From Macrostomum lignano (lineage: Eukaryota): a stretch of 64,000 bases of DNA. Positions 20,464-58,242 of this stretch are shown here, piece after piece. Positions within the stretch are counted from its first letter, which is position 1, and each line of letters starts with the position of its first letter. The stretch spans positions 62,001 through 126,000 of the forward strand of contig NIVC01001568.1 in NCBI GenBank assembly GCA_002269645.1, in the 5' to 3' direction. The position numbers and the translations under genes are program-made. The notes under the pieces are model-generated. The model saw only the letters and a list, made by a program, of their open reading frames with translations. It did no database searches and was not told the origin of the DNA.

Positions 20464-23400
20464 TTAGCCTAAATCGACAATCCAGAACTAAGAGCGCAAT
20501 TAATGGCTCAAATAGAAGCACAACGAATGGCCGATAGGGCAGAAATAGAAGCAAGAGTTAGAGCAGAAAATGAAATTCGGTTACAAAGACAAATAGATAT
20601 TATCGAACAATCAACATCAAAAACAGATGGTGCTGAAATAATAAATATTGATATTGATATAAATACTGATTATAAAGAATATTTTAAACAAATGAAAAAT
20701 AAATTAAAGGCCATATTAGATAAATATACAATGAAATATAATAACAAACGACAGCCAATTAAGTATAAAATAGAAATTGAAACAGAATTTAAAAAACCAA
20801 ATATGATAAATGCAAATACAGAAATTGAAGTAATAAACAAATTTTCACAAGAATCCTATAAGTCTCTTTTAGCTATGAAAGTATTTAATAGTCAATTTGA
20901 TCAGATTGAAGCAGAGTTTGATGAATGGATAGATAAGATGACAGAAAACGGATCTGGGTTTATATTTGTATCTTGTAACTCAGCCACAGTAAAGATTGTT
21001 CCAATTGAAATTCTTCGAGGACGAGCGCATATGAATCCTGGATTTAAATCACCAATGATCATAAATCCTGACAATAAAGATGATAGGTGTTTATTATGGT
21101 GTTTACTAATTCACAAATACCACAAACATTTAAAATCACATGTAAATAAAATATATAATTATAGAGATTATGAGGATGAAATAATAATGAAAGACATATC
21201 CTACCCAGTGTCTATAGACGATATATACAAGGTTGAAAAAATGAATGGTTTAAATATTAATGTGTTTACAATTGAAGAGCCAGTAAACATTAATGAAGCT
21301 GATAAAGATTGGTATAAAAAAAGATGTTATTTAGTAAAGCCAGCAACAGATATAACAGCACCGGATCAAATCGATTTATTATACTTACAGCATGAAAACA
21401 ATACTCATTATATTTACATAAAGGACATTAGTTCTTTTTTGAAGAGAAAATGGAAATAGGATGATATTATGTAGAAATTGTTTCACATTTAAAAAGGATG
21501 AAACAGCTCTTAGAAACCACCAAAGGTTTTGTTTAGATCACAAATTTACTAATGTTGTAATGCCCAATGAAAAAGAACAAACCCTAAAGTTCCAACAACA
21601 TTATATGGCAATTAAAAAACCAATAGCAAAATATACCAAAACCAATACCAAAACCAAAACCAAACCTGATTTTGAAGCAACAAATGTTCCACTTGTACAA
21701 CAGGATAGCACCGACTGCACAAAAAAATTAGCACAGCAGTTTCCAAATAGTTATTGCATATATGTACACTCCATAGCTGATCAAATATTTAAATCAAGGA
21801 TGATTACTTATCATGGCAAGGATGCCGCAAAACACATGGCAGAAGCATTAGTAAATGCATTTGAATATATTCAAAATCAATATGATAAGTTATCAAAATA
21901 TATTATTATGACAGATAAGGATAGAGATAATTATAAAAATGCAACAAATTGTTTTATGTGCAAAAGGCATTTAAGTAAGAATAATAAGATACGAGAGCAT
22001 TGCCATCTAACAGGAATTTATCGCGGGGCGGCATGTACAGTAGATCATGTAATGCAAAAGAAGGAAAAGGCTGTAAGGAAATACCATGGGATTTAGAAAT
22101 AGTAAAGAAAAACTTTCCAATACTATTGAATCGTTTCAAAAAGGAAAAACTATCCGAGGAAGAACTAATGCTATTAACTCGCAAGGGGGTCTACCCATAT
22201 GAATATGTAACATCTGAAAAGGTATTTAATGATACTCAACTACCCCCAATTGATAAGTTTTACTCAATACTATCACAATCAAATATAACCGAATCGGATT
22301 ATGAACATGCTCAAAAAGTATGGAAATATTTTAATTGTAAAACATTTAAAGATTATCATAATCTTTATCTTAAAGCAGATGTTCTCCTGCTAGCTGATGC
22401 GTTTGAAAACTTTAGAAATCATACATATGAGAATTTTGAAATCGATCCCGCATATTGCTTCAGCGCACCCGGATTAACATGGGCGTGTGGATTGAAACAT
22501 ACAGATGTTAAAATTGATTTACTAACTGATCATGATATGTTGTTAATGATTGAGAGAGGAATTCGTGGTGGATTCTCAGGGGTACTAGGAGATAGATATA
22601 CTAAAGTAAATAATAAGTATCTTCCAAATTATAATAAAAAAGAAAAATCATCATATGTATTATATCTAGATGCAAACAATTTATACGGCGGTTGTATGAA
22701 ACAAAAATTACCAATTGCCGATTTCCAATGGGAAGACGATCCAGATTACTATAAAAACATTCCTGAAGGAAGGGGATGTATCTTAGAAGTGGATTTGCAA
22801 TATACTCGGGAAGCAAAAGCAAAAACATATAAATATCCTTTAGCTCCAGAGCATTGTTCAGTTAATGAAGATGATTTATCACAAACACAAAAAGATTACC
22901 TCGAAGCGGATAATGCAAAACATCTAGCAACAAAAAAGTTAATACTAAATTTACATGATAAGAAAAACTATGTAGTGCATTATAAGCTTCTACAATTTTA
23001 TGAAAAGCAGGGATTAAAAGTATCTAAAGTACATCGAACAATATCGTTTATTGAGGAAGAGTGGTTAGCTAAATATATCGACTTTAATTCAAATCAGAGA
23101 CAGATGTCAAAAACAAATTTCGAGAAAGATTACTGGAAATTAATGAACAATGCTTTTTATGGAAAAACGGTTGAAAATATTAGAGATAGAACCCAATTCC
23201 ATTTAGAAAAGGATATTGAAAAAGCGAAGAAATATTTTTCTAAACCAAACTTTAAAGACTTTATAAAATTTGATGATGAGTTTATGGGAATTCATATGCG
23301 CAATAAAACAACAAAGTTTCTTAAACCAATCTTTATTGGAATGGTTGTTTTAGATTTTGCAAAGCTGGTAATGTATGAATATTATTATGATGTTATAAAT

Positions 23401-24130
23401 AAAACTTGGCCAGATAACTATCCAATATATGCAGACACCGAAAGCTTGGTATTTAAGGTTGAAACGCCGGACGTCTATAAAGACATGGAAACAATTCAGG
23501 ATACATTGGATACATCCGACTATCCGGATAACCATCCCTTAAAATCAAATAAAAATAAGAAAGTTGTACTTAAAATGAAAGATGAATTAAATAGCAAAAT
23601 CATAACCGAGTTTATAGCAATAAGATCAAAATGCTATGCATTTAAGGTTTTAGGACAGGAGGGAGAGGTAAAAAAAATAAAAGGGGTATCAAGGGCAGCA
23701 GTTAAAAAGATAACATTTGATGATTATAAAAACGTACTTTTAGATTACCTTAATACAATTGAAAATTATCATGCTCCACAATATCGATTAAACTCAGATA
23801 ATCATCAGATGTTTGTCATCGAGACAGATAAAAAAACATTAAATCCATTTGATGATAAAAGGTATTTAGATGATAAAATTAAAACATATCCATATGGTTT
23901 AAAAGAAGAAATTAAAAACATGCAAAAAGATAAAAAACAAAAAGAGGATATAATAAGCAAATATAAAGAATACAATGAGTCAATAAATGAATATTATAAT
24001 AATTGTGATTGCGAGGGGGACTGTGAATGCGAATATAATACATTTTTAGAATATGAAAAAGATATTGATAACTATTATGCAACATTTCCAAAAGAACTTA
24101 AAAAAATAAACAAGGAAAAAGCCTTGGATA
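20464..24130 (+). pseudogene. Protein-primed family B DNA polymerase of the Polinton (first 4 codons stranded at 11390-11401)
   Basis: EndoVII-like HCHLTGIYRGAA, KGVYPYEY, YLKADVLLLAD, YLDANNLYG, KLMNNAFYGK, DDKRY. Disabled by a stop at 20470, a break at 21459, loss of the ExoII region near 22040, and YxDTDS reading YADTES. The tail to 24273 is foreign sequence. Confidence 0.92.
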
Positions 24131-25769
24131 CCCGGTGTAAAAAGCTGAGTCTAGCGGACGTCTTTAGGACCATGGTGGGTCATCAAAGGGTCGCGTCAGC
24201 TTTAGGAGAAAAAAACGCAATTTTTTTTGTCAAACCACTGCAAAAGGTCAAATTGCAGTTACCAAATGGTTAGAAGGTTTATTACTGATGGACTTTTGAG
24301 GGTCCGTTTTCAGTCTACTATCGTCCGTTTAGATCCTACCTAATTTTAAAAAATCAGTTTCATCGCTGAAATAATGCTGATAATTTGTCGAAAATTCGCT
24401 TAGTTTACGGTTTATTTCTGAATATAATACACATATTGAAATCACTTCGATAGTCCGTTTTAAACTGACATGTACTGCCAAGAATGACCCTTTAATTTCT
24501 GTAGCTAATTTTGCGACTTACAACAGTAGAGCAGGTAGCAAAATTGTTTTTAAAAGAAGTTAAGCACATAAGAAAGCAGATTAGAGTTGCAAATTTTCCA
24601 AATTGGAGTTTCGTTATTTTCTGGTTATTCAGTAGAAATTGTACAAGTTTTTTGTTGTCAGTACAGTACGAGCGTACGCTCGTATATGTTAATGAATTTA
24701 AATTTATCTGATGAACAACATCTTATCAGGTTTTAGTATTAGTCATATTTTTAGTCCTTATTTAATATCCCGGGCTGCCAAAAAACGTTCGTCCAACGAA
24801 AAGGATATTTGGGCAAAGTGAATAGTCGTATGGGCTGTTGAAAAAACGTTGGAACAATGTGGGACATTCAACGAAGGAAAATACCGCACATTTGCGGCAC
24901 ATTTACTTTTAGTAGCATAATATGCATGTTTGTATACCTGTACAAAATAGACGAATTGGCCTGAATTTTTTTGAAAAACTGTTTACTGTTAATCGGGTAA
25001 ACTAATCTGTTCCCGCTTGTATTAATTATGCAAAGCTTTTCGTACATGTAGCTCGAAGAAAAGATGAAAAAATAAATTCGCTGGACGACGATACAGATTA
25101 AGCTGAAACTGTTTTTCTGCTACATGTACGAGCGTACATGTAGCTATAGCTGAGCTGATGGCAATTACAATGAATCAGATATTTCTGTTATAAGTTACAT
25201 TACACGTGCAATTAATTATGAGCTTATTAAATTTCCAGTTTGCTGAAGGCGCCGAATAACTTTATATTTTGATTTTGATTTTGATGGTCGGGTGAAAAAC
25301 GTCTTCATACATGTATAATATGGTTGCCCGTTAGTTAGCTACTACTGACAGTAAGGTCCTAAAGAGTATTCGTTTGAAAGCATCAATATAACCCACTGGA
25401 AAATCACAGCCGATTACTCAATTAGTTGTAGAATACAGTTGGGTTCACGGAAAGACACGATTTTTCCATGGAATCGTTCTGGAATTCTATAGAATATTTG
25501 TTCCTATTGGTTGAAGCGCGGCCAATTAGTAGAACACTGACAGCCTCCCCCACCAAACCGCAACAGAGAAAGAATGACACGGTGGGGTGACAGTTGACAG
25601 TCAAAAGGTGTGTGTATACTGTAACCTCCATGCACTAATATTTTTCCTATATTTCCCATCCTTCTAACCAATTACAGCATTAAGTCTGTCTTTCAAAGCA
25701 ATATTTTTGTAAGGGTGCTTTCGTGACCTTCTAAGTGCAGGTACTGGTCCTCGTCGTTCGTCACGTCAT

Positions 25770-32012: not shown

Positions 32013-32369
32013 CTCTGTGCTTGTTATGAAAATCTTGTTTGAAGTGTATGCACAGTGCATTTGATTGATTTATTTTTAATGAAACTATTATTCATGACAC
32101 CATTATGTTATGCCCGAATATCGAATCAGGGCTCTGTTTTCTCCAACAATCGAACGGCCAGGGAATCGTATTGGCTCGCTGCCGGCCCGGCCCGCAAGGT
32201 AGCGACCATAGAGGCTTCCCTGTCACAGCCAATAGAAATTAAGGCACACGGAAAAAGGAATATTTGAGAAGAGTGCACCCCCACTATAGTTAAATATCTA
32301 GCTCGTAATCCCGTGCTCCTCAGTTATCCACAGATTTTTCTTATCCCTGCAAGCAAGCACTGTCCCAAC

Positions 32370-33303: not shown

Positions 33304-33660
33304 CTATGATTTATATTTTTCCTTTCTTTTTTTAAGATATAATTTAATTGCCAAAAGTATTGATAAGTTTCTGATTAATTCAAAACCTGATATTGAGCCA
33401 ATTGAAATACCTAAAAATAACTGAGATAAATTAAGAGTTGGAATAGATTGTAAAATACCTAAAACGATTACACATAACATTGATAAGCTTCCAAACCCAA
33501 TATTGAAAAAATCCATATTTCTGATATGGTTTGAAACTCTTCGTACTTTTTTAGCATATAAATCATAATCATAGTTAATACGATCAACATTACTTAACAT
33601 GTGACCCTTACGTTGGTTAAAATGGTCACGTTCCCTTTTATCTGCCTCAGACACCGACAT
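33304..33660 (-). pseudogene. Polinton two-transmembrane protein, resembling adintovirus 'gasderminX'-type ORFs; C-terminus cut at the junction
   Basis: Basic N-terminus (YAKKVRRVSN), a hydrophobic hairpin, then basic KKRKEK. Confidence 0.4.
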
Positions 33661-33976
33661 TTTCGTCTATTTTTAATAGCACCAAAATGAATTCCCCGCG
33701 CTCTTTGGGGATTTGTCCTGCGCTCAATAAGTATTGTATTGGAGTTATTCTTTCTTTTTTCTCCCATTTAAATCCAGTCTTCCAAAACTCTTGAAGTATA
33801 ATATAATTTTTTAATAATTTAATTAATTCTTGAAGTTTCTTATTATCCTGAACATTTACATTGCTAAATAAAAATTTGGTATGAGATTTGAATGTTTTTA
33901 TAATCGGTTCTTGTTTAGGAATAGGAATGACAATATTGTTATTTTGTCGCATCGATGGAGTTCTAGTGAAAGCCAT
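33647..33976 (-). CDS. Polinton hypothetical protein, 109 aa
   Basis: ATG preceded by tatataaa; tightly packed between Polinton genes. Confidence 0.5.
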   Translation of the reverse strand: MAFTRTPSMRQNNNIVIPIPKQEPIIKTFKSHTKFLFSNVNVQDNKKLQELIKLLKNYIILQEFWKTGFKWEKKERITPIQYLLSAGQIPKERGEFILVLLKIDENVGV

Positions 33977-33991
33977 TTTATATAGAAATAT

Positions 33992-35862
33992 TTAGGTTAT
34001 TTGTACGGGTGGTTCTTCCAAATAACCAGTAGAAGGAAAAACATAACCAAACGATGTGCTACCACAAACGGCGGCGCCACGAATAAAATGTGCAGCATCC
34101 GCTCCTCCGGTTCGAGCACCAAAACCCATAAGAGTTCCAGATTTATCTAAAGTTCCCCAATTTCCACTATCATATGTGAAAACGTTCTGCCCAATGAGGG
34201 TATAAGAATCGGCTGAAGCATTGTATGAATTTAATCGATACCAAACTCTTTGATTTAAAATATTAATTTCAAATAAATGCCAATCGCCGTTATCAATATT
34301 TGCATAGTCTACCGTTTGATCCGCGGCAGTATTAACATCCGCGCGTGTTGATCCGTCTGATTTTTTAGAACTCTAAAGTAGGCCAAATTTATCATGCCAC
34401 TCACTTGCAAAAACTATCAATACGGCGTCTGTTGTTAAACCTGCCCCACTTTCGGTTGTTGGTCGTTCGTGACAATATGCATAAAACCATACCGCATCTG
34501 CTCCAGTTCCTCCAGCATTGGCAACTCTGAAAAAGAAAGACGCCGATATATTTTGAAAATGTGTGAAATTAAATTGCAATGCCCCACTGACTCCACCAGT
34601 TTCACGAGTAATTCTAGCACCATTTTGATAATCGATATAAGAAGCGTCGCCAGTTAAAGAACCAACTGGATATATATCGCCGGCGGTTGTTGGATTTTGA
34701 TATCCAGTCCAATTGCAAATTACTGTCTCGAATAATGCAGCATCAATTGCGGGAATATTATCCAATTTATTTTTATCACCGGCAGACATTCTACCATTTG
34801 AAGTTGGGGTTGCTACCTGATCTACGTACGCTCGCGGGGTTGCAGAAAGTATTTGATTCGGCCAATTAAGATCTTGAATTTCAACTCGGTGTTCAAACAA
34901 TTGTATTAGGCGAACTTCGATAGGTTGTGTAGCGGTGCCACCAGTTGGGAATAAAACACTAATATTTCCAAAAATTAGTCGTTAAATTAGTTAACGCAAA
35001 TGAAGTTGCTTGAATTGGTGATCCCGACGTTCCTAATACCGTCCATGCGTCGCCAGCAGCATTTTTTGCGCGAACCGACCATCCCGATGGGATATCAATT
35101 GTTGCGCTGCCTGTAATTCTTAATTCATTTATTCTTCGATTATAACCTAAAAATTCAAATTGAATTTCCATATTTGTTGTGGTTCCGGTATTTGGTGACC
35201 ATTGTGTCGCAAGGCTTCCATCTCCAACTCGAAAAGCATCGTTGGTATTTTCAGATGCTGTAAGAACAACATCAGGATTTGAAGTATTTGATGTAAGCGG
35301 CGTGGCAAAAATATCGGCGTCTGTTGCATTAGCTCGCTCATTTACTTGGCCTAGAGTCACCGAGTCTGCGTCCTCTGATCCAAATAATAAATTTGTTAAT
35401 TTAAAATTATTCATATTAATATTACCATTACGACTAGCAACCTGATTATCGACATAGTTCTTATCAACTACCGAGTTATTCGTTGTAATTGCAACATTTA
35501 TAATTCGATTGTTGTCCATATCTAAGGTTCCGGTTGCGGTGGTTTGAACATAACGTGAATCAGAATCAGTTCGAGAATAAGAATCAGTTATATCTCTTTT
35601 TAAATTTAACCCAGTGTCAACCTCTGTTTTTGTATATGAATCACTAATATCTCTTTTAAGATTTAATGGTGTCGATTTCAGTTTTGGTATAGGAATCTGC
35701 AACATTTCTTTTTAAATTTAGTTTAGTATCAATTTCAGTTTTTTTATAACCTTCATCTTCATTAATATATCGGTTATCTCCGAATGTAACACTAATACCA
35801 CTTGATTCTCCACCGCCAGATCGTGTAGTTCCGTTCCATTAGGGTGTTCCAGAAAATAACAT
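33992..35862 (-). pseudogene. Fibre/receptor-binding-like protein: stalk repeats, F5/8C-like domain, L-type (ConA-like) lectin domain; frameshifted
   Basis: Repeats YTKTE(I/V)DTxLNLKRD, LDMDNNRIINV..KNYVD motifs, DGSLATQWS..IQFEF..INELRI, then GADAVWF..IVF and GFGARTGGADAAHFIR. Pieces at 34959-35705, 34373-34900 and 33992-34370. Confidence 0.6.
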
Positions 35863-35889
35863 TTTTACTGCCTATTTTATAGAGTATAA

Positions 35890-36364
35890 AAATCGAACCG
35901 AAGGTCCGTCCGATCGCCCTGTGGGGTCGCATACTTTGTATGATTGTCTTAAATACTTCGGGAGTTACCTGTTTGACCTTTTCGAGCCTATATAAAAAAT
36001 ATAACGCCGCTTGTCCGCAATAACTTTTGTCAAAGGTTTGAAATTGTTCGTGATGATCTCCACATAAACGATTTTTAGTATGATGAAATTTGTCTTTTAT
36101 TTCCTGTAACGGAGAAAGTGCGTATGAATCAAAAAAATAAACAAGTTTGGGTTTTTAATAAACTGCTGACCAATGAGCACCATTTTCTTTTGTCTTTTCC
36201 ATATTAACAATGAAAGATCCATATTGTGGTAAGTCTTTGATTTCATCCCGCATCACACATCTAAATGGTTTTATCTTTAATTGCCTCGCCCAATTTGTTA
36301 ATTCGATATTGCTTGTTGTATCAGTTCCATATCTTTGTTTGAACTCACTCCAGCTCATAGTCAT
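35890..36364 (-). pseudogene. Adenain-type cysteine protease of the Polinton
   Basis: GAHW (His), FFDSY (Asp) and QTFDKSYCG (Gln/Cys) read in one frame through a premature TAA at 36155-36157. Confidence 0.85.
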
Positions 36365-36424: not shown

Positions 36425-39336
36425 TCTGGCAGCTTAGAAAAGCCGGTCTCAAAATTAAGCCATCTAAGTGTGAGTTGTTCCAGGACAAGGTTGCCTTCCT
36501 GGGGTTCGTTGTGTCTAGCCGGGGCATTGAGGCTGACCCAGCGAAGACTCAGGCTGTCCAAGAGTAGCCTAAACCGCTTTCTAAGAAACAGCTCTTATCC
36601 TTCTTAGGATTCGCGAATTACTACCGGAAATTTGTGCCGCGATTCTCAATCATCGCCACGCCTTTGTATGCCTTAGCCAAAAAGGATGCTCCGTTTCTAT
36701 GGCAACCGCATCATGAACGGGCTTTCCAGGAACTCAAACATAATCTCTGTTCACCACCAATTCTGGCGTACCCAGACTTCTCTGCCAAGGGGCGCGAATT
36801 TATTTTGGACTGCGATAGCTCGCTTGACGGCACCGGGGGTGTGCTGTACCAGCTCGGGCCAGATGGCCAAGAGCAAGTCATAGCTTACGCATCCAAAAAA
36901 TTCAACAGTAGCCAGAGAAACTACTGCGCCACCATGAGGGAGTTGCTAGGGCTCGTTCTGATGCTCGAGCACTTCCGTCCTTATCTATTAGACAAGCCTT
37001 TCACTGTCCGGGTGGACGCGGCCGCGCTCAAATGGCTGCATTCTAAGAAGCATGCCACTGGTATGCTGGCCCAATGGCTTGCCACCATTGAACTGTACCC
37101 GCTGAAGGTCCAGCAGTCCACTCTAGAACGAATAGCCGAATACGATTTCACAGTCCAGTACCGTCCAGGCGTTGACCACGTGCCTGCTGACGCTCTTAGT
37201 AGACTGCCAAAATTCAGAGCCGATCACTTTGACTGCCCGACGTGCAGCCAGATTCCAGAATTTAAGGGGAAATTCCTGGACCAAGACCCAAAGCACCGGC
37301 GTACGCCCCCCGCTAGAGAACTGCGTCAGGTGTGCGTCCAGACCATAGGCATTAGCGTAGCGTGTCAGACTGACACAGATGCCCCGGCTGAACCAACGCC
37401 GAATGTTCGTGCTACTGCTAGCGGTGCTGTTCCTAGTCCGGAGACTGAATCCCGTGAACCTGAAACCGAATCCCAAGTGCTACCTGAGCTCATCTGGGCC
37501 CAGAATGCCCAGGACTCCTGTGTTGACATGGCGCGCTTAATCGCCAGTGTCCAGGGTAAGGTTGAGCCATTGTCCAAGGCCGAACTGCAGGGTTGTAGCC
37601 GGGAAATGCGCTCACTCTGGGCTCAATTCAATGACCTTGAAGTAGTCGAGGGCCTATTGTACTTAGCCAAACCTTCCAAAGCCAAGACTGCCAGCAGGCG
37701 CCTGGTGGTGCCTGAAACCGCAGACGTCAGTCATCTGGTCCTTCAGTATCATGGCCATTTGAACCATTGCGGTATCACCAAGACGATGGCCGCCCTGAAG
37801 GCGCGCTTCGTTATTTCCGACTTAGATACTATAGTCAAGGGGGTCCTGGCCGAATGCACCGTTTGCGCTAAGACTAAGAAGTCAAAGCGTAAGCTCAAGG
37901 CCCCTATGCAACCAGAACTGTCCGGCTACCCGAACCAGGTTGTCCACGTGGACCACGCAGGCCCATTCGAAGAGTGTGAGGGGTACAAGTACCTGCTGGT
38001 TATGATTGACCGGTTCACCGGGTTTGTCGAAGTAGTTCCTGTTTCCGACGTCAGCGCAGAGACCACTGCCACAACCATCCTGACTGAATGGGTTGCCAGG
38101 TATGGGGTGATGGAGCAGTTGGTGTCTGATAACGGAACTGCCTTCATCAATAGTACCATGATAGAATTAACTAGGCTCCTACAGATTGACATGGGTCGGA
38201 TCACAGCCCGTCGCCCTCAGGCTAACGGTAAAGCTGAGAGGATGATCCAGACGGTGAAAACCCAGATTAGAGCCATCTGTCTTGAGAGACAATGCGACTG
38301 GCCCCTTGCCAGCCGCCTGGCCGCCATGTCAATCCGTGCCACAGTCGCCGAATCCACCGGATTTACTCCAGCCAAACTTTTCTTCGGGCGTGAGTTCGAA
38401 CTGCCGCTCGACCTCTGTCACAATCCACCGCCAAATGAGCACTACCAGCCGGAGAGGTACGCCCACCAGTTGCACCGCACGCTAGTCGAAACCTCTGCCC
38501 TAGCCCGCCGCACTAGGGGTAAAGCCCAGGAAAGGCAGAAAAGGTATTACGACCGCCGCGCCCTCCGCGCTGAGTTCCACGAGGGAGAATTAGTCTGGGT
38601 CTTGAACCCGAATCACAAGGGCATAGAACCCGCTGTGTGGTTGGGGCCATACCGAGTAGTGCAGCGCTGCTCCGAGCGGACTTACCGTTTAGTCCCCGAG
38701 TATGGTCTCCTAAACCCAGCAGATCGGGTGCCAAATCCGCGCCACAACATTTACAACATTGACCGCCTCAAACCGTGTATCAGACAGCCCACTTACCAAG
38801 ACGTAGTTGACCGGTATGGTGAGGCCACCCATGCCAGGTCTCCAGCGCCTAGTGTGAACCCGCCCAGCGGCCCCACGAGCGAGCTTAGCCTCGTCACCAT
38901 TCCCCAGCCTCCCTCTGCCCGGCCAGAGAGCCCACGCAGAGCACCAGGGCCAAATCCACCACCGCCAGCTTCAGGCGCCTTTGAGGAGGGGGCGGGAGCT
39001 GAAGCTGGAGAAGGCCAACCATTCGCCGAAGCTGGCGATGCTGTAGCCATTGAGGGACAGCCACAGCCAGACACTGACACTGACAGCACAGACACTGACA
39101 CCAGCCACAGCCAAGACAGCTCAGAATCGCTGTACACGGCTTCCTTGGGGGATCCCTCCTCCGAGCAAATAGAACCACCTGAGGTTGCTGCGAATCCAGT
39201 CGCTGCGCAAGCAGCTGAACCACCAGCCCTGGCTGACGTACCCAGATCCAGGTACGGACGCCCCATCCGCCCGCCTGTCAGGTACCGGACCTGTCAAGTG
39301 TCCGACCTGCTCCAGCAGTGGGGAAGCAGACACTAA
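36425..39336 (+). pseudogene. pol: Pol fragment (RT C-terminus, RNase H, integrase) of Gypsy-B
   Basis: KIKPSKCELF..AFLG, W-to-TAG stop at ~36565, LDCDSS, HVPADALSR, HVDHAGP, SDNGTAF, NGKAER, WLGPY. Confidence 0.9.
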
Positions 39337-41256: not shown

Positions 41257-42084
41257 TGTGACGTTGCTAGTTTAAGTGGTCCCGCAAAAGGGCCGTTGGA
41301 CTGCTGTTTCTCTATAGTTTCAACCCTTCAGTTTCACCGTTTCAACTAAACTTTTCCATTTGTTTATTGCGACGTTTACTTGTAGTAGTGCCCAACGATT
41401 TTGTGGCAATTTCTAATTCACTGTATATTTTGCTATCCTCTCTCGCGACCGTATAATTTTGGCACGATCGATAATTTCAAGTTCTCTCGCCAGCCAATGA
41501 AAACTCTCCGTGTTTACGCTACCCCCTTTTGCGCTCTTTATTAACCTTCGCCTGGCGGACTGGGGGCTTCCCTTGTGTTCTGTGTTCTCTCTCCCTAGGC
41601 TTGTCCTCCGTCCCGTCTGGCTTGCCTAGCCTTGTCTAGCCTTGTTTTCCTTCTCTCTGTCTGGCTGCCTCGAGCCTCCTTTATCTCACGCCACGGCTGA
41701 CGCCAACCTCGCCACTGCTCATCTACTGCTCATCTACTGCTCATCTACTGCGTCTCACCGCCTTCACTGTGCTCATTGCCATTGCTCATCACGTTACATC
41801 GCCATTGCACCGTTCGTCTGTCACTTGACTTCATATCCAACTTGTCTTCAACCATTGTTGCAGCCGCCAGTGCCCAGAAAGCTATAGTTTGTTTATTGAC
41901 ATAAATTTTAACCAAGCCTAATATTGATACTACCAATAAAACCAACTACGGCAGTTCCTGCCTTTATCGCCAAGTGCTCCGCTACAAAATCCGCTTTACA
42001 AGAGTTGACTTCAACTTACTTTGGGACTAAAACGGCCCTTTTAAGGGTCATAGCATAGCTAGCCGCTACGCCAACATCGTGACA
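41257..42084 (+). repeat. 3' LTR of Gypsy-B, 828 bp
   Basis: Follows the PPT; tgtgacg...cgtgaca termini; aataaa at ~41935; Polinton sequence resumes after it. Confidence 0.8.
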
Positions 42085-42396
42085 AGGACTATATCTCATA
42101 TCTTGGTTGAACAAAAGAATTCTTTTTTGATTGGTTAAATTTCACAAGAAATTATTGTGTCAAAAGATTATACTGGAATGTTAGATATTGATCATTTCAT
42201 CCCCGCTTCCTCATTTAGTTACAAAGACGAAAATCAGATGAAAAAGTCTGAACATTGGACAAATAAAAGATACTTAACTAGTGTAGATAATCGCTATAAA
42301 AAAGTTAAACAACCAACCATTGAAGTTTTTGCAAAACAATTGGTGCTATCGTGTATTTTTAAGGCTATTAAAAATGAGCAATCAATTAGTATTTGA
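42085..42396 (+). pseudogene. HNH endonuclease-like gene, C-terminal part
   Basis: LDIDHFIPASSF..HWTNKRYL..DNRYK matches the IDHIIP.S.F..HWTNL.PL..N..K pattern of viral HNH proteins; 5' part removed by the Gypsy-B insertion/deletion. Confidence 0.6.
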
Positions 42397-43955
42397 AGGA
42401 GGATTGTTGGATATTCAAAAAGGATTAACAAGCTTACCGCCAATCTTTACTACTGGAAAATATACAAATGAATTACACATTCCTGGGTACTCGTTTGCAG
42501 GTTATCCCGTGGCCTGAGTGGTAGAAGCAAAGCTACTGCTAGTCACTATTTGTGGTGACATCTTCAAATTGCGTGAAACCCGTCATAAAGCTTCAAGTAC
42601 CACTTCAACTGAGAAATCTTTTGAAGGAACAGAGGTAACTCCTCTTCCCAATGGTAACAAGCTTGAAGACACGGCGGCAATGCGCAGCCAAGCTCCTAAG
42701 TATTTAAATATACTCGTAAGGAGAAGGTTCAGAGAGCAGACGGAGATGGGCGGTAATTTATCTGCTTAAGGTGTGCTCCAGCCTCTTTCGAAAGATTGAG
42801 GGTAAACTACCGGGGACGCGATTGGATTTGAGATTAAATCCTGACAATACTCCAAAAGCCAATTCAATTCCCATTAATGGCATTGATTGGTTAGCATATT
42901 ATCATGACTTAGCATACAGAGATGCTGACAAAAACTCGCCCGAGGAAGCATTAAGATTAAAGCATGAGGCCGATAAAAAAATGATTGAAGGATTAGATAA
43001 TCTACAGGGATTATCAGTGAGCCAAAGATTAACTAGGTGGATGGTTAAAAAGATCTTGCAATCTAAAGTTAAATTTGGTTTAGGAATTAATTACAACCAA
43101 CATGGAAATAATTGTGTCGAGTGTTTGTTGTTAGGTGGTAGTGGGCTAAGTTCTGATGAGGCAAAGGTTCTTCATAAAGAATACCGAAAACCTAAATTTT
43201 ATAGAAAAATCATGAACTTCAAAAAGAATGAAATTTGGTATGCTGATTTAATGTCAATGCCGAATGAAAGAGGATATAAATATATCTTAACCATACTAGA
43301 TGGTTTTACTCGATATGCGTGGGCTGTTCCTTTAAAATCCAAAACAGGAGAAGAAGTTGCTGCTGCTTTTAGAAGCCTTGGAGAAAAAAGTGAAATGTTG
43401 TGTGTTGACGAAGGAAAAGAATTTTACAATCCTCACATGTATAAATTGTATCATTTTGAAAAAGGACAAGAAAGGAAAAAGGACGCGAATGGGGAGTATA
43501 TTAATAAAATTTATTCTATTTATGGAGAAAGTAAAAACGCATTAATAGAAAGATTTATTCGAACTTTGGGGAAGAAATTGTGGTTTCAGTTTAGTCTGAA
43601 TGGTAACCAAAAATGGGTAAAAATATTACCAGACGTAGTGAAAGATTATAATAATTCATATCATTCAGCTATAAAGATGACTCCTCAACAAGCTTATAAC
43701 AATCCTGAAAATGTTAAAGTTGCCTTTAGGGACTTTGAAAAAAATAAAAAGAAACCTTTTAAGGTTGGTGATTCTGTGTATATCTATAAATGGAAAGATA
43801 AGTTTGAAAAGGGAAGAAAAGGATATTGGAAAATAAGTGAGAAATTTACTATCAGTAAAGTTTTAAATACAAATCATACAACCTATATCATTGCTGATAA
43901 GGATGGTGAAGAAATATTGGGTTTGTTTCATGAGAACCAGCTAATGTTAGTTTAA
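42374..43955 (+). CDS. Parvovirus-type phospholipase A2 fused to the Polinton retroviral-like integrase; 2 exons (42374-42502, 42810-43955), 424 aa after splicing
   Basis: Joined exons read LHIPGYSFAG|PGTRL..PINGIDWLAYYHDLAY (Ca loop and HD motif), then with no stop WYADL / VDEGKEF / IERF (DDE) and FKVGD..FEKG. Confidence 0.85.
42503..42809 (+). ncRNA. Group I intron, subgroup IC1-like, 307 nt
   Basis: P AAATTGCGTGAAA (42566), Q AATGCGCAGCC (42679), R GTTCAGAGAGCAGA (42727), S AAGGTGTGCTCC (42768); P1 with U.G at the 5' splice site; P2, P2.1, P3, P4, P5abc (GAAA loop), P6, P7, P8, P9 and P10 all pair; removal restores the PLA2 frame. Confidence 0.92.
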
Positions 43956-44058: not shown

Positions 44059-45653
44059 TGATGTGGCCGCAGCCTTCTGCTGCAAGCATAGGGCCGCAGT
44101 CACATCTTAGGCACTGTTGTCCGCTGCTAGTATCTGGAATAGGAATTTTCTGCTGCATCCATGCACTCTAAGCAGCCCTCCTTGGCGCTCAGAAGTTGCA
44201 CAATATGGCGCAATCTTAAACATAGGAAATTAGGAAGTTTGCCTAGCCTAGGGTTAGTTAGTGGAAGCCGCCAAATTTGGCGCTTGCCTGTACTGTTGTT
44301 GCCTGGCCTGCCGCGTACAATCGCTCAGTGTACGCAAGTCTAGTTAGCCGCACTCCTCCCCCGTGCGCTCTCTGGACCCTTCCCCTTCTGCTCTCTCGTT
44401 CCTCCTGCGTCCGAGCCTCTCCCCATGCGTCATTCTATTTTTAGACTGAGGGTTTCGCGGACCCCGTGTCCCGAGCTGAACCCTCCCTCACGTGCTGCCT
44501 TGTGCGCACAAGCCCAAATTTGGCATGCTATTGTCACTGGTGGCTGGAGGCGACTGTCGGCGCTTCGTACAAGCTACTTTCTCCCCCATGTTTAATCAAT
44601 ATCTGTTGTGCATCATTATCCGCACTTTTCGGGCTGCAGTTCCATGGTCAAGCCACGGAATGCCCAAACGCTCCACCATCCGCGTTCTATATTAACGAAT
44701 GCAGGCCCGCTTGTCTGATTTTTCCTCAGAACCGCCTCGTGAGGACTTGTCGAGAGCTTTCTCCAAGTCTAGCGCTCTAGCGCCGGTTAACAGCGAAGCA
44801 AAAGCTCCTGAGCAGGTCTTGGTAGAGCTATAAGCATCGCTAAGCAGCTGCAAGCTCCTGAGCAGGTCTTGGTAGAGCATTGCAGCGCTCAAGCTGAAAG
44901 CACGCTCCTGAGCAGGTCTTGGTAGAGCATTGCTAGTGCTATAACTCTGGTTTTCCAGCCTACCCTATTGGCAGGAAATCAGTTAGCTGAAGCCATTCTG
45001 CTAGTGTCTATTCGCGACACAGGCGCGAATAAGAGTGAGAGTGATTGTGCAGTCGCAGCACTCGTGCGCGATTCTAAGAACTAGCTGTAGTTTTATAGGC
45101 CTAGAGTCTATTGCTGCTTCAGGCGCATAGACCTATTCCTCGCCGCCCATCTGCGCGAGACGTAGCTATTAGGTTAGTAGGAGTTAGGGGTCCTCTGAGA
45201 GCTAAACTCAGACACGCTCAAGCGCGGACAATTGTCAGTGCCAGGACTGCGCCGCTCAGGCCATTTGCTACCATTGAGTCCTGTCACTTGGACGTTGAAA
45301 TATCTGAGACTAGTTGTTCTAGCGTTATTTATTTGCGTGGAGCCCAAACAGACCCCTTCATTGCGGATCCTACGGTTCCCACGCTGGTGGCAGCACTACC
45401 CTTAATTTTAGAATTCTCCCCAGTCACAGTCCCCATAAGCGTGCTTGCTAAGGTTGCCTCGGCCAATAGCAGTCCGCCTCACCCTAGCAGCCAGATACCG
45501 AGACACTTCACTGGTGACAGCGGTGGGATACCAAGATCTTCAGGCCCAGATCCGAGCAACCCCAAATTTTAAAGCACGTCACTGGTGGCAGCGGTGGGAT
45601 ACCAAGATCTTCAGGCCCAGATCCGAGCAACCCCAAATTCTTAAAGCACGTCA
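44059..45653 (+). repeat. 5' LTR of Gypsy-C (~1.6 kb)
   Basis: TG..CA ends; internal ctcctgagcaggtcttggtagagc repeats at 44800-44930; the last 700 bp match the 3' copy. Confidence 0.8.
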
Positions 45654-45675
45654 CTGGTGGAGCAGCGGTGGGATT
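45583..45675 (+). promoter_or_regulatory. Primer-binding sites complementary to the tRNA-Leu 3' end
   Basis: TGGTGGCAGCGGTGGGAT (45583-45600) complements ATCCCACCGCTGCCA-CCA; a 2-nt-insertion variant is at 45655 and another variant at 45512. Confidence 0.75.
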
Positions 45676-45883
45676 ACGATACCGACTCCAACTCCAGACC
45701 AAATAGTTAGGAAGTTTAGTAGTGAAGCAGCTGTTGGGAATACCATACCAATAAGCGCTCAAGAGGGAACAGCATCCTATCAGTTAGTAGATAGATTTCC
45801 TAGTATATCAGCTATTAGTATTAGATCGCGCGAAGCTCGCTGCAAATTAGAATCAGTTGAATTCTCGCCTTATAAAAGTGAGA

Positions 45884-47134
45884 ATGTCATTGAACCGATC
45901 CCGTTCGTTAGAGAGTGGTTCAGAGCAAATTCCGAATGAGAACAGGGGCGCAGCCTCCGCTGCAGCCGCATCTTCATGCGCTAGCCCTGATGATGGCATA
46001 TTTGGAGCAGACGCAGACTTCATTAGAGGTCTTGGCGCAGGCGTGAATGCTAACCTGCTGCAAAACCTGCTCGTTAATATGAACAGGCAGATGAATCTGC
46101 AGACTAAAAAGCAGATTAAAATCGCCAAGTACAAGCCATCAATGGACATTCGAATTTGGCTCGAAATGTTTGAGATGAAGTGTGAGAGAGAAGAAGTCTA
46201 TGACATGAGATAGAGGAAAGCTTTAATCATGGATAGCCTAGATATGGAGACTGCCCTCGCCGCAGTTCTGCATATGAAGCTACCACATGATCTTCCTTAT
46301 CACAGCTTTCGGGAGCAGCTCATTGAGCGCTTCGAGAAGCTTGGCGGCCCAAACGCCTATAGGGAAGAATTTCGCTCTCGATTACAGCGAAAGAACGAGT
46401 CAGTTGATGACTACGCTGAAACGCTTCAGGCACTCGGAGAACAAGCGTACCCGAACCTGAGAGCTGACCAGATTGAGATAGAGCTCGTAGATGCCTTCAC
46501 CCGCGGTGTACGCGTAAGCCCTGACACTCGCGAAAAGCTTCTACTGATGCAACCGGCTACGATTATGGAGGCAAAGCGTGCGCTCAAGCGCATAGAAGCG
46601 GCGCGAGAGTTCGCCAATCGAACTCGTGACGCTCCCGTCAGGATGATGCAAGATGACTCGCGATCATCAGAGCATGCCATCCCCAAAGGCCTCCAAGAGT
46701 TGATGACTAGGCAGACAGCCGCGCTGGAACGCCAGCAGCAGGCTACGCAGCAGTTGCTTGAGCTTGTAAGCTCGCAAAGCGCGTGTCCGCCAAGACTGCA
46801 GCAGCCGAGAGCTGCGCATCACCAGCAGTCCCGCTGGTCGAGCAACGTCGAGATTCCGAGATACCGACAGCGTGCAACATGCTATAGCTGTGGCCAGGAA
46901 GGCCATCTTCTCGGACAATGCCAGCGCTACAAAGAGCAGCAAGCGCTCGGAAAGCGCTATTCGTGTGAACGCTGCGGAGAGTCAGGACATGCTGTCCAAG
47001 ACTGTCCCGCGCGTGGTGTTGATCGACAGTACAAGAAGAAAGTTTCGGGAAACGGCGCCGCAGGCGGTTGCGACGGCAACAACCCCTGCGTCAACAGCCA
47101 AGAGCCCGCAGCCAAGAACACCCGGCGACAGTAA
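45884..47134 (+). pseudogene. gag: Gag of Gypsy-C with one in-frame TAG (46211-46213)
   Basis: ORFs 45857-46213 and 46229-47134 are in the same frame; CYSCGQEGHLLGQC and CERCGESGHAVQDC. Confidence 0.85.
47047..47095 (+). promoter_or_regulatory. -1 frameshift signal of Gypsy-C
   Basis: G-GGA-AAC at 47047-47053 in the gag frame, followed by hairpin gcagg-c-ggttg..caacc-cctgc; pol is in the -1 frame. Confidence 0.8.
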
Positions 47135-50100
47135 GCTTCGCTGGAGGAGAGGAGGCACGACGCTCAGACCAACAGGATTTGAGTGAGATCGGTGCCAATT
47201 TTGTACAAAATCTATGCGATGCCGACCCATATGTTACGGCACATATATCCCGATGCAGTGTCGCCTTCCTGTTAGATACCGGTAGCAGACGGAATCTAAT
47301 TGGCAGCGATACTTGGTCTGCGATTAAGGCGCAGCACCCAAATTGCGTAGTTTCACCTATTTATTCCGATGCGATCCAAATGTATGATGGATCTGCACTA
47401 GCGCTGCTAGGCAAAGTTTTTATTCCGATTGAGTTTGGCGACTTTAGCGCTGAAACTGAATTTTACATCGCTAAAGGCGCCCATGAAAATATTTTGGGGA
47501 TTAACTTTATGAGAGAAAACTGCCTTGAGCTAAATTTTCAGCAAGGTATGTTGACTTTCAAATCGTTAACCCGTGTGCCAGTGAGATTTACTAGACGCGA
47601 AGCTGCAGCCAGTAGGTTGTATACAGCCGACAGGTATACAATTCCACCGCGCAGCACACGCGTAGTTGAAGTGAAAGTGGCGAAAGGGCGCCAAGATTTG
47701 AATGGCACGCCCCTGATTTTCGAGCCACTGAAATCCGGTAATAGAGTAGGCAGCCTTACTTACACTATGGCGCCAGCACTCTTAACCGTGAATGAAGGCC
47801 ACAGCTATTTAGAAATAATCAATAATAGTTCGGCTGAAATTACAATTAGAAACAATGTACTGCTTGGAGTAGCTAGTCCGCTTAAATGGCAGGACTTAGC
47901 TTACTTCGAAGAGCCATCAGAGGCGCGAGTCAGACACTTGCAGCCGGATGATGCTCAAGCAGGAAAGAAGAGCTGGATAGATCAGATAGAAATTAGTGAC
48001 CAGCTCTCAGCAGATCAGAAGAAATTAGTTAGAGAACTGCTGCTCCAAAAGAGCGCAGCTTTCGCCAAAGACGAGCTAGACCATGGGCTCACGCATCTAG
48101 TGACTCATGAGATGATCATGACTGATAACACTCCAGTCAGAATTCCGCCGCGCAGAGTGCCGCCGCACTTGCAGGAAAAGCTCGATGGCGTAATAGATGA
48201 GATGTTGGCAAAGAACATCATCAGGCCAGCATACTCCAGTTACAACTCGCCAGTGCTGTTAGTACCTAAAAAGGACGGAACAGTTAGATTAGTGTTAGAT
48301 TATCGCGAGTTGAATAAGAAATGTTTAAGGCACGTCTATCCTCTGCCTAACATTCAAGATACCTTTGCTTGCTTAAAGGGCTCGAATTTCTATTCTTGCC
48401 TAGACTTAGCGCAAGGTTTCTTTCAAATTCCGCTTAGACAAGAAGATCAGCATAGAACAGCCTTTTCAATTATTAATCGTGGCCAATTTTGCTTTAATGT
48501 GTTACCAATGGGCTTGACTGATTCGCCCGGCTCATTCCAAAGGACCATTAATTTGCTCCTAGAAGGATTGAAGCCTCATATTGCGCTGGGGTATATGGAT
48601 GACATCCTAGTTCATTCAGTAACCTTTGAGCAGCATCTTGCGCACTTAGAAACAGTGCTGCAGCGCGTAATTGACGCGAAACTGAAGCTGAAGGCGAAGA
48701 AATGTTTGCTGTTCTCAGCTGAGTTGGCTTACTTAGGACATAAGCTAACTCCCGAAGGTGTCAAGACGGATGAGGCGAAGCTCGCCGCTATCCGCGATTG
48801 GCCAGTGCCGCGCACAGCCTCGCAGTTGCGCAGTTTCCTAGGCCTGGCCCAGTACTATAAGAAGTACATTAAGGACTATTCTAGTATAGCATCGCCATTG
48901 CACGCTTTAACGCGCAAAACTATCACTAGCCTGTCAAAATTATGGACTGATGAGCATCAACAAGCTTTTCAGGCCCTGAAGGACAAATTATGTTCTTCAG
49001 AAGTTTTAGCTTATCCTGAATTTACCAGTGATCCTAAGGTGACATTCATCTTGGACACAGATGCTAGTGATATAGGAATCGGCGCATGCTTAGGCCAGAT
49101 TCAGTCTGATGGCGAAGAGCATCCTATTGCTTACTTCAGCCGCAAGTTGTCAGCTGCAGAAATGCGCTACACGACAACTAAGAAAGAGTTGTTGGCGATT
49201 GTCGATTCTCTCCGACATTTCCGCTACTATCTATTAGGGAAGAAGTTTAAGATTAGGACAGACCATTCCGCGCTTTGCTGGCTACTTCGCCAAACTGAAG
49301 CCACCGGAATTCTAGGTCGTTGGGTGCAGAGGTTGAGTGAGTTTGATTTCGAGTTGTCCCATAGAGCTGGGAAACTGCACGTCAACGCTGACACGTTGTC
49401 CAGGAAGCCGGAGACCCCGGCCCAATGTTCAACTAGCGCCTTGAATAACCCATGCGAGATACGGAGGCAACTGTCTCAGGCCCCGACTGACCGCATTGCT
49501 GGAGGAGAGTGCGCCAGCGAAAGATGCTGCTGTAAAGCGCATCAAGAGTGCCTGCGAGAAATCAGACTGGGAAAGAAGCGAGGAGGCCACTGTGAATTCA
49601 GCCCACCCGCCAGAAATCCCTCAACACTCAGGATGTGATGAAGGCGCATTAAGGCCCGACTGCTCTCCCATGAGCCCGCCTAATGCAACCGATAGTCTAA
49701 CTAAGACTCCATGGCTCGATTGCTTTCCCATAAGCCCGCCAGGTGTCGCCAAACCAAGTGCGCAGAACTCGAATTGCTCCCCGCTGAGCCGTTCTGCTGC
49801 AATGCCGACTATCTCGAAGGTCAAATCGAAGCGATCACTGACCCTGATGTCGAGCAATCCTGCTGAGATGGGCACTGAAGCGTCGATACGATGCGGATTC
49901 CAATCCCGCCTTCGACATGCCAATCAGCAGTGGATGAAGAATTCTGCCAGAGCCAGAAAGGCGCCTCAGAATTGGCTGCCAGAAGCTGAGTGCTCTGATG
50001 ATGATGATGATGCAACAGGTTCGGACTGCACGACAGAATCTGAGACCAATCGACAGCCTGATTCGCCCGATGCATTGCCGAAGCCTCAGTTGGATTTCGA

Positions 50101-52012
50101 CTCCCACCAGTCACCGTCGCTGCCAAGATGTCGATTTCTGCTGTCTGAAGCCCTAGAAGCACCGATTACGAGACAGGAGCTGCTTGAAGCGCAGACGAGA
50201 GACCCTGTACTCGCGAAAATCGCTGAGTTGAAGGCGCAGAATGCGCCCAAACCGTCTTTTGACGAGAGACTAAGCATGAGCAAGGAAATGAGAAACCTGC
50301 TCGGGTACTATGAGACCCTATGCTTAGATAATGATGGCATTCTAATGATAGATTTCGATGATAATCGACCCATTAGATTTGTCTTGCCAAAGGAGTTAGA
50401 CGCTGCAGTAATGCGCGCACTGCATGACTCCCCGCTAAGCGGCCATTTAGGCCAGAAAAAGACTCTGCAGAGAGTCCAGCAGTTATTCTGGAGACCCGGA
50501 ATTCACACTGTGGTCGATCGTTATATCGCCCAGTGCAGAGCTTGCTTAGAGAGCAAAGCCAGGCGCAAAGTGCACTTGCCGCCTCAGAAATTCCCGGTCG
50601 GAGATGTGTTAGACCGCGTACACTTGGATATCATGGGCCCAATCAATCAGCCTAGTGCTGCAGGCCATAGATATGTCCTAACCTTGTGTGACGCGACGTC
50701 GAAGTATCCGTGGGCCTATGCTCTGAGAAATCAGAAGGCCAAGACAATTATTAAAGTGATTCAGGAACAGTTCATTCCAATTTACGGTGTGCCAGCCCAG
50801 TTCCATTCTGATCAAGGAACCAATTTTACGGGCGCCGTCTTTAATAATTTTTGCAAATTATATGGGATAAGACACACAGTAACTTGTCCGTATAATCCTG
50901 CATCTAATGGACTTGTTGAGAACCTGAATCGGAATATTAAGTCTGTGCTAACCTGTCTGCTAGAGACAAAGCACAAAGATTGGGCACACTATCTGCCAGC
51001 TTGCTTAATAGCGCTGCGCACGGCTGTTCACTCAGTGACAGGATACAGCCCGCATTTTCTGATGTTTGGCCGCACGTTCAATTTGCCAATTGAAAATGAA
51101 TTGCGCCACTCACCTGATTATCAGAATTTGCCAGATTATGTGCGCCAATTTGAAAGTAGACTGAGTGAAGCGACAGCCCTAGCAAGAGAGAGAATTCGCG
51201 CTCAGCAGGATTTCCGCGTAGATCACTTTGCCGGGAAACCGCAAGTAGATCCGCTGCAGCCAGGACAATTAGTGTTCTTGGCGAATCCAGTGCTAGAGGC
51301 CGGTGAAGCGCCGAAATTCCATAGACCGCGGAAGGCCGTCTATGAGGTGATCGAGCAGAAGGGCGAGCTGGTCTACAAGATCCGTCGCCAAGGCGAGAAG
51401 CGCCGTGCTCGAAAAGAGGTGCTTGTCGTGCACCGGAAGAATCTGCTCCCCGTGCCAACTGCCGACTATCTCCCACAGGTCGCAGAAGCACCGCACCCGA
51501 TGCACCGACAGCGTTGTCATCCGGCGCCACAGGCTGCTACCGAAGCGCCAGGCTGCCACGCTGAGTTCTGCACCGAGGATTCCGACGAGGACGAAGACGA
51601 GAGCATTGTCGACGTGAATTGGGCGCACCCAGCTGCAGCCGCCGCTGCGCTGTGGTCGACGCGCTCGCCGCTGCAAGCGCGATCGCGAGGCGCCAACGCT
51701 GAAGTTGTCGACCGAGGAGCTGAAATGAGGATGGGAGATGTTGCGCCCATTGAGGTTGCGCAGTTGCCGTCACGCAGCCCAAGCCCACGCGAATCTCCTA
51801 GTCCCGCGCTCCCACCCCCCATCGCACCTGAGCAACAACTAGGAGAAATTTCAACTGTAGATAGGCAGGCAACTAGGACTAGGGACGTCGATCTAGCGAC
51901 ACTGAACCGCCCAGAGCGATTGCGCAGGGAGCCTGATAGGTTACAGGTCAACCCTAGCCGCAAGACATATGCGTCTCGCCTGGCGAGGTTACTTAACCGC
52001 ATCTTCCGTTGA
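47053..52012 (+). pseudogene. pol: Pol of Gypsy-C, one frame change in the RH-IN linker (~49440-49640)
   Basis: LLDTGS, YMDD, LDTDAS, HVNADTLSR; then H..SGHLG..C..C, VHLDIMGP, SDQGTNF, NGLVEN. Confidence 0.9.
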
Positions 52013-52205
52013 AAATAATTGCCTTCCAGCGACAATTATGTCGGACGAAGAAATGAAATCCGCGATCAGGACTACAACTAAATCTAAAAAGCCGGCGGGT
52101 GGCACTACTGTTGCCCAGAGGGTCGATCAGATGAGGAATCAGGGCGAACTCCAGCTCCGGAGCTCGGTGGCTGTTCCGCTAAATAGCCGAGTTCCCTCAT
52201 TGACC

Positions 52206-52907
52206 TCCAGCCTACCCTATTGGCAGGAAATCAGTTAGCTGAAGCCATTCTGCTAGTGTCTATTCGCGACACAGGCGCGAATAAGAGTGAGAGTGATTGT
52301 GCAGTCGCAGCACTCGTGCGCGATTCTAAGAACTAGCTGTAGTTTTATAGGCCTAGAGTCTATTGCTGCTTCAGGCGCATAGACCTATTCCTCGCCGCCC
52401 ATCTGCGCGAGACGTAGCTATTAGGTTAGTAGGAGTTAGGGGTCCTCTGAGAGCTAAACTCAGACACGCTCAAGCGCGGACAATTGTCAGTGCCAGGACT
52501 GCGCCGCTCAGGCCATTTGCTACCATTGAGTCCTGTCACTTGGACGTTGAAATATCTGAGACTAGTTGTTCTAGCGTTATTTATTTGCGTGGAGCCCAAA
52601 CAGACCCCTTCATTGCGGATCCTACGGTTCCCACGCTGGTGGCAGCACTACCCTTAATTTTAGAATTCTCCCCAGTCACAGTCCCCATAAGCGTGCTTGC
52701 TAAGGTTGCCTCGGCCAATAGCAGTCCGCCTCACCCTAGCAGCCAGATACCGAGACACTTCACTGGTGACAGCGGTGGGATACCAAGATCTTCAGGCCCA
52801 GATCCGAGCAACCCCAAATTTTAAAGCACGTCACTGGTGGCAGCGGTGGGATACCAAGATCTTCAGGCCCAGATCCGAGCAACCCCAAATTCTTAAAGCA
52901 CGTCACT
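52206..52907 (+). repeat. Partial 3' LTR of Gypsy-C
   Basis: Matches 44954-45655 at a constant offset of 7252 (the spurious 153-aa ORFs at 45111 and 52363 are identical); PPT and first ~895 bp absent. Confidence 0.9.
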
Positions 52908-58088: not shown

Positions 58089-58242
58089 GTCATTTTAATT
58101 GCCAACCCATTCTGACTTGAATTGTGAAGTGATTGCGTCGTAAGTCACCAAGCTGGCTTGAAATAAATATATTCCTGAAAAATGGCACCTTCAAGATGTA
58201 CGAGCGTAATGACATTTAAGATGAACTAAAGCACAGTGTATG

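Follow-up and report, generated by a model that had tools for sequence, protein, structure and literature searches.

The interrupted gene and its element

In the window, as we call the whole 64-kb stretch of DNA analysed here, a PLA2-integrase gene on the forward strand is divided by a 307-nt insert. Exon 1 (42374..42502, forward strand) comprises 43 codons, begins in the context TAAAAATG and ends on a Gly codon; exon 2 (42810..43955, likewise forward) resumes with a Pro codon and runs as a 381-codon open frame through the remaining PLA2 domain into an rve integrase (E 7e-8). A first-pass annotation of the sequence had placed the insert in the PLA2 calcium loop of a Polinton gene, and both points hold up. 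PF08398 matches the intron-less allele L063 (E 9e-9), with the junction between the Gly and Pro codons, and the hallmarks of Polintons are present: the rve integrase in exon 2, and a double jelly-roll capsid (PF21738) and an A32 ATPase (PF04665) in a sister element on contig C2696. PLA2 genes of animal Polintons have been described, with no mention of group I introns in the available part of that report (PMC8502044).

At 42081..42378 (forward strand) lies a truncated and frameshifted remnant of an HNH/endonuclease VII-like ORF, recovered by tblastn and matched weakly by phrog_1035 (E 0.003). Among 30 close copies, this slot upstream of the PLA2 gene is occupied by an HNH-like ORF in 22 and by a free-standing Eco47II-like gene in 8, never by both (see also L063, 3-479). 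Three overlapping forward-strand ORFs at 20503..24273 form a gene that we take to be PolB-like from family-B motifs, with no polymerase match in Pfam, PDB, PHROG or NCBIfam; in less disrupted copies it stands 10-12 kb upstream of the intron gene. On the reverse strand, 33304..36154 holds the remnant of a virion module—small ORFs, fibre-like and protease-like—resembling ORFs in two further elements, L288 and L289. The window element is a fossil: its polymerase is spread over three frames, LTR and other elements are nested within it, and frameshifts break it.

The genome around it is that of an animal with nicotinic-type receptors and prospero genes, judging from 157 Cys-loop receptor matches and split prospero genes; a receptor from a contig with an intron-less element has chordate and mollusc clusters as its nearest relatives. 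A mitochondrial contig, which would have allowed the phylum to be judged by its genetic code, was looked for and not found. It is very improbable that the elements are foreign to this genome, as a co-sequenced protist, a free virus or a misassembly would be. Such an origin would fit with no single-copy host gene having been found in the window, and with the environmental origin of the closest relatives of intron and nuclease. However, the contigs that hold copies number well above 100, the copies in some cases lie more than 600 kb into the contig and are interrupted by host LTR elements, and three contigs (C13, C110 and C1766) each hold both an intron-bearing element and a Cys-loop receptor gene, 26 kb apart on C1766. 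The animal nuclear location proposed at first pass thus stands.

Structure and ends of the intron

An Infernal search, which the annotation had suggested as a check on its call of a group I intron at 42503..42809, returned RF00028 as the sole Rfam match in the whole 64-kb window, at 42493-42800 and above the gathering threshold (57.5 bits against 50; E 5.6e-12). Together with covariation and the intron-less allele L063, this establishes 42503..42809 (forward strand, 307 nt, without an ORF) as a real group I intron with an IC-like core. Its ends are set by L063, a natural allele reading GCAGGT|CCCGGG across the site, with second support from the GPGT loop of uninterrupted homologues, recognised by pattern in 8 of 10.

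Every helix named beforehand was found in its place, although the one called 'P6' is P6a. All lie on the forward strand. P1 (42498..42516) pairs exon CAGGU (42498-42502) with the guide GCCUG (42512-42516) and places the predicted wobble, U42502.G42512, exactly where exon 1 ends; a P10 helix can form between 42503-42511 and the 3' exon (-7.4 kcal/mol). P2 and P2.1 occupy 42518..42559, the P2.1 loop being the position of a nuclease ORF in sister introns. The P4-P5-P5abc-P6 scaffold (42570..42728) carries a GAAA loop on P5b (42613-16) and a P6a, CCUAAG...UAAGG, which we take to be receptor-like; its second strand reads UAUGG in sister introns as against UAAGG in the window copy. P3 is likewise present, completing the P3-P7-P8 half of the core, which covariation supports as it does P4-P5-P6. 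P7 and P8 (42732..42779) include the unusual P7, G-a-GAGCA / UGCUCC (42732 and 42734-38 with 42774-79), which pairs fully and retains the guanosine-site pair G42734-C42778, as had been described. The final segment, 42780..42809, comprises P9.0 (AG at 42780-81 with CU at 42807-08), P9 and, immediately after P9.0, a terminal (omega) base, 42809, that is A where G is usual. This terminal A, like the family context set out below—the nuclease of sister introns and the purge of GGNCC—was no part of the earlier description.

The window copy forms all 65 of 65 core pairs, and 97.4% of cells pair in an alignment of 21 sequences, of which 15 are window-type introns, 5 are sister introns and 1 is metagenomic. 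Two-sided change occurs in 20 of the 65 pairs, among them 4 of the 6 in P7. None of 500 shuffles did as well and slid controls pair at 36-53%, figures to be read with the kinship of the sequences, which inflates the shuffle test, and with a structure drawn from the window copy. Minimum-free-energy folding is by itself modest (z -2.0, with 4 of 100 shuffles equally good).

As to subgroup, the IC1 label is borne out in part. P2.1, P5abc with an A-rich bulge, and the GAAA loop with its receptor-like P6a agree with what we presume to be the IC1 feature list. Only 30 nt follow P7, so the P9.1/P9.2 (P13) extension is absent, and we grade the intron IC-like.

Copies, alleles and the terminal base

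In the genome searched (764 Mb, 5,269 contigs), the best 40 of 190 candidates were scored and all 40, the window included, matched at 88-100% identity; in each of 30 copies cut out, the intron (299-307 nt) sits at the same site. The annotation had also proposed looking for intron-plus and intron-minus alleles, and exact patterns yield both: at least 170 intron-bearing 5' junctions and 26 intron-less alleles, against none in controls. Before the site, 24 of the 26 intron-less alleles have C, which is unable to form the U.G pair. The commonest intron-less allele belongs to PLA2-integrase genes with a different upstream sequence (L059, L061, L064, L065).

Among the 30 close copies the terminal base is A in 19 and G in 11. 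Such a predominance of omega-A could mean that window-type introns splice no longer and merely ride in non-autonomous elements, their integrase made from an internal start at ATG 42981. The window element, broken by frameshifts and nested insertions, would suit this account, as would the recombination among copies, seen in at least three changes of the omega state on the intron tree. We nonetheless consider it improbable. In omega-A copies pN/pS is 0.37 in exon 1 and 0.03 and 0.08 in the PLA2 parts of exon 2, with similar values in omega-G copies, and exon 1 and the PLA2 codons upstream of ATG 42981 are thus under purifying selection. Window-type copies retain 63-65 of 65 core pairs, and the mean intron distance (0.06) is below the exon synonymous distance (0.3-0.5). 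An omega-A intron that is spliced has a precedent in ND5-717 of an anemone, going by the accessible text of that report (PMC8146996).

Spliceosomal removal was considered and rejected: none of 54 frame-restoring GT/GC-AG pairs rebuilds Gly-Pro. Taken with the purifying selection in omega-A exons, this suggests that the intron was spliced out while the elements were active. In assembled contigs from four sequencing runs, three of them presumed to be RNA, no joined exons were seen, a result without bearing on splicing because such contigs reveal presence alone.

A third intron type occurs at the same 5' site in L060 (~267-592), L062, L066 and L067. Its P2, P2.1 and P5abc are window-like but its core, GCAACGACUG / CAGUCU, differs and is presumably IE-like (42-43 bits), and the intron looks chimeric. 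Two extra bases stand in the 3' flank, with which the guide pairs extensively; comparison with a metagenome contig, L080, suggests that the 3' end may have to be set back by one base, in which case the loop would be in frame and lack Pro.

A restriction-type nuclease in sister introns

The genome holds 28 further RF00028 matches (73-91 bits). The 25 of these 28 loci that parse, which supply the counts given here, are introns of 836-895 nt at the same site, all ending in G and with the usual P7. Their P2.1 loop carries an ORF of ~160 residues that scores above the cut-off for Pfam RE_Eco47II (PF09553) and keeps the PD-(D/E)XK catalytic residues D65, E76 and K78 invariant. A structural model of the protein (pLDDT 92.9) takes EcoO109I as its best fold match (Z 9.7, rmsd 3.6, 159 aligned; next Z 5.9) and predicts a bare restriction fold of only those ~160 residues. 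Profile, residues and predicted fold together identify the ORF as a restriction endonuclease of the Eco47II family.

In the accessible parts of the sources, EcoO109I is reported to cut RG^GNCCY (PMC3089450) and an Eco47II homologue is associated with GGNCC (PMC10305163). The nuclease resembles a bacterial Eco47II protein only slightly (28% over a stretch of 50 residues), so the specificity of the intronic nuclease rests on family, fold and the depletion described below, which together point to cutting at GGNCC. The nuclease has no sequence match in PDB, none in PHROG or NCBIfam, and none in viral contigs by a single query. Relatives at ~30% identity do occur in giant-virus and metagenome contigs, where C5 methylases adjoin them (10 of 10 neighbour genes tested) and the top plasmid match of those methylases adjoins an annotated Eco47II enzyme. 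Closer relatives (45-65%) come from other data sets, and many read on into an intron core. The metagenome contig L080 shares intron, site and nuclease with these elements and is free of GGNCC over 1,297 nt. In the host genome a search for a cognate methylase gave only a weak split match on three other contigs, and none is found among the element ORFs listed.

In the nuclease tree, which has a long-branch outgroup, free-standing nucleases are sister to the intronic ones within a clade of intron-borne proteins. In public assemblies a cluster of 30 intron-borne members (P0007), on contigs of up to 65 kb, perhaps represents another host with many copies.

Depletion of GGNCC and Gly-Pro

Gly-Pro is always coded GGN CCN, and the empty insertion site is therefore itself a GGNCC. 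Across three elements (26.5 kb), GGNCC is the rarest of 256 XY-N-ZW words, with 1 site and an observed/expected ratio of 0.03 against 0.49 for the next word, and their 31 ORFs contain Gly-Pro 0 times and Pro-Gly 17 times. A nuclease-bearing element has 0 GGNCC in 9,384 nt where 10.7 are expected, while other GG-CC spacings number 7-12. The ratio is not reduced in retroelements (1.06, with 50 sites in 17 kb) or in methylase-linked viral loci (1.0), and ten homologous proteins from elsewhere contain 10 Gly-Pro, 8 of them in the matched loop, against 25 Pro-Gly. The putative nuclease site spans the intron insertion point, and the depletion is independent of flanking bases, which points to a 5-bp site.

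The purge has limits as evidence. L288 and L289 are homologous, which makes the sample one of about two lineages, and both are purged though they lack the nuclease, so the purge may have had a different source of GGNCC cutting behind it. Three sites remain in the Polinton ORFs of the window itself, and these ORFs are not significant by synonymous shuffle (2 against 3.4; 94/300), with Gly-Pro 0 against 4.2; the retroelement control is itself slightly low in such a shuffle (44 against 53.8; 5/100).

One account built on that other source leaves the intron functional and its homing ordinary—by the HNH neighbour, or by a restriction-fold protein with a long site—and has GGNCC purged because a helper giant virus brings a GGNCC restriction-modification system. 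Giant-virus loci do carry this pair, depletion extends to nuclease-free elements, an HNH-like ORF lies upstream in 22 of 30 copies, and nuclear homing enzymes, in the text available, are described as reading 15-20 bp (PMC3679873). Yet the intron sits within the purged motif and carries the very enzyme family that reads it, and the modelled protein amounts to a bare restriction fold of ~160 residues. Even on this account the intron would serve as an immunity allele. We regard this account as unlikely, though as a serious minority view.

A proposed cycle of homing and immunity

Structure and ends, number and distribution of copies, host, nuclease family, depletion and the want of a linked methylase can all be read from sequence: the window intron lacks an ORF and belongs to a group I family that occupies a single position in animal Polintons, Gly|Pro in the calcium loop of PLA2. 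It is likely, in our judgement, that splicing, nuclease-driven spread, immunity by purging and homing explain its history. The intron would leave the PLA2-integrase mRNA by the two-step guanosine mechanism, perhaps with protein help; in many copies the leaving base would be A. Spread and persistence of the family would depend on the type II restriction-like GGNCC nuclease, whose gene sits either within the P2.1 loop of sister introns or on its own just upstream. With no methylase in the elements, immunity would come from purging GGNCC, down to the loss of Gly-Pro dipeptides; by splitting the one Gly-Pro that PLA2 needs, the intron would remove the last site. In mixed replication the nuclease would cut an intron-less element, having few sites or one, once and at the insertion site, which amounts to homing, and the same nuclease would shred unpurged competitors. 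ORF-less introns such as the window copy would be immunity alleles moved in trans.

This reading gains from L080, an independent contig combining intron, site, nuclease and freedom from GGNCC, from the purifying selection on omega-A exons like that on omega-G copies, and from the rarity of GGNCC and Gly-Pro against undepleted controls. Several points weigh against it. Splicing and cleavage are both predictions, and a terminal A is contrary to the rule; 26 intron-less alleles still keep the site intact; in a nucleus as full of sites as the retroelements suggest, an enzyme that cuts at 5 bp would be expected to do harm; the upstream HNH-like ORF is a rival mobiliser; and the purge in nuclease-free elements and the weak signal in the window's own ORFs remain. 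With these in mind we lean, with less assurance, towards a more specific scheme in which a 5-bp restriction enzyme, captured from a giant-virus restriction-modification pair without its methylase, acts as both homing nuclease and weapon between elements. GGNCC and Gly-Pro would have been written out of the genomes and proteomes of the elements. At the single indispensable site, self-splicing introns, in many cases with a terminal A, would be retained as immunity alleles.

Viral connections

The annotation had supposed a viral source, and the closest intron relatives found, in giant-virus RPB1 and capsid genes, agree with it; the elements probably acquired both intron and nuclease from giant viruses, although the intron tree (131 columns, 41 of 89 loci parsed) is too weak for naming a donor. 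No PLA2 locus was returned from viral contigs, and a pattern search for P5b found none. A viral contig with BRO-like genes, L283, has at 1501-1569 an intron, below the Rfam cut-off, whose P7 is the same as the window's unusual one.

Starts of the TAAAA(A)TG type are shared by 18 of the 30 ORFs from Polintons and by 0 of the 11 from retroelements, against a background of 5-9% of ATGs; we take them to resemble poxvirus late starts. The context is seen in L161, L288 and L289 and in the window at 42366-42376, and the intronic ORF has it as well. Together with the giant-virus kinship of intron and nuclease, it invites the speculation that the elements may be expressed by a helper virus outside the nucleus.

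Relation to known systems

Comparisons with published work follow the accessible portions of each source. Nearest in setting are the protist Polinton-like viruses of Rhodomonas, Paulinella and Desmodesmus (PMC12220804), with RF00028 introns of ~310-380 nt in a gene of an integrated element. There the hosts are protists, the interrupted gene is a short ORF that has no annotation and lies upstream of the capsid gene, and no intron nuclease is described, whereas the present family sits in the active-site loop of PLA2, in an animal, and has a restriction-type nuclease. Giant-virus introns, for example in polr2a/b of Bodo saltans virus (PMC5871332), have a related core, nuclease-bearing parents with ORF-less offspring and a proposed role as a co-infection weapon; they differ in having HNH and GIY-YIG nucleases, in not being animal-integrated and in that no genome-wide purge of a short site is described.

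A PD-(D/E)XK restriction fold in a group I intron is known from I-Ssp6803I and I-Bth0305I (PMC3424549), bacterial or phage enzymes with long sites (17 bp for I-Ssp6803I). The nuclease here matches PF09553 and EcoO109I, not PF11645, and appears to keep a 5-bp site. With Eco47II, EcoO109I and the giant-virus restriction-modification pairs it has in common family, fold, catalytic motif and a putative GGNCC core, but it comes without a methylase and lies in an intron or beside the target gene. Tetrahymena-type rDNA IC1 introns (PMC3679873) and the putative shark ITS 'spintrons' (PMC8393795, PMC10964413) are likewise nuclear, with P2.1 and P5abc; their setting is rDNA and their nucleases are His-Cys, whereas the present introns lie in a protein-coding gene of a mobile element, lack P9.1/P9.2 and often end in A. 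Collaborative homing in phages (PMC11296320) also sets an ORF-less intron beside a free-standing nuclease gene, as in 8 of 30 copies here, but here the element is eukaryotic and the nuclease seems to come from an intron-borne lineage.

The claim to novelty therefore narrows to the animal Polinton and the protein-coding setting, since group I introns are already in print for protist Polinton-like viruses (PMC12220804) and, putatively, shark rDNA (PMC8393795, PMC10964413). In the openly accessible literature that we searched, neither a group I intron in an animal Polinton nor an intron nuclease of the Eco47II family came up; a 2024 review, in its accessible text, has group I introns absent from animals save non-bilaterian lineages and five sharks (PMC10964413). 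What looks to be new is the setting of this group I intron, a protein-coding gene within an animal Polinton, and its tie to an apparently new scheme of homing and immunity.

If the scheme with a 5-bp enzyme is true, animal chromosomes would house functional group I ribozymes inside protein-coding genes. The conserved copies in nuclear Polintons, at least 170, make ribozyme function in animal mRNA testable. Homing nucleases are held to need long sites that spare the host (PMC3943268), and some described homing enzymes combine a restriction fold with a long site (PMC3424549, PMC3943268), the nuclear homing enzymes being His-Cys (PMC3679873), again by the accessible text; against that expectation, the record here points to a short-site enzyme with immunity by purge and intron. 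On the same scheme these Polintons would copy themselves at a distance from the DNA of the host, likely aided by a giant virus as helper. The link of intron and restriction-modification genes to giant viruses bears on a helper-dependent viral phase of animal Polintons. Natural omega-A and omega-G alleles of one compact ribozyme also offer a ready comparison of 3' splice-site chemistry.

Other repeats

Palindromic, GTTCG-rich insertions of ~30 nt recur in intron loops and exon 1 (L031, L057, L060, L068 and others), which suggests a tiny mobile element. LTR retroelements occupy 365-8000, 36568-39336 and 44954-52896 of the window, the last with identical LTR segments and inside the Polinton remnant. 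Two related transposase-like gene pairs, at 14891-18613 (forward) and 29732-32750 (reverse), match DUF4218 weakly and are probably EnSpm-like DNA transposons. A large inverted-repeat element spans 56286-63172, with arms of ~1.7 kb that are 77-100% complementary and a 3.3-kb spacer.
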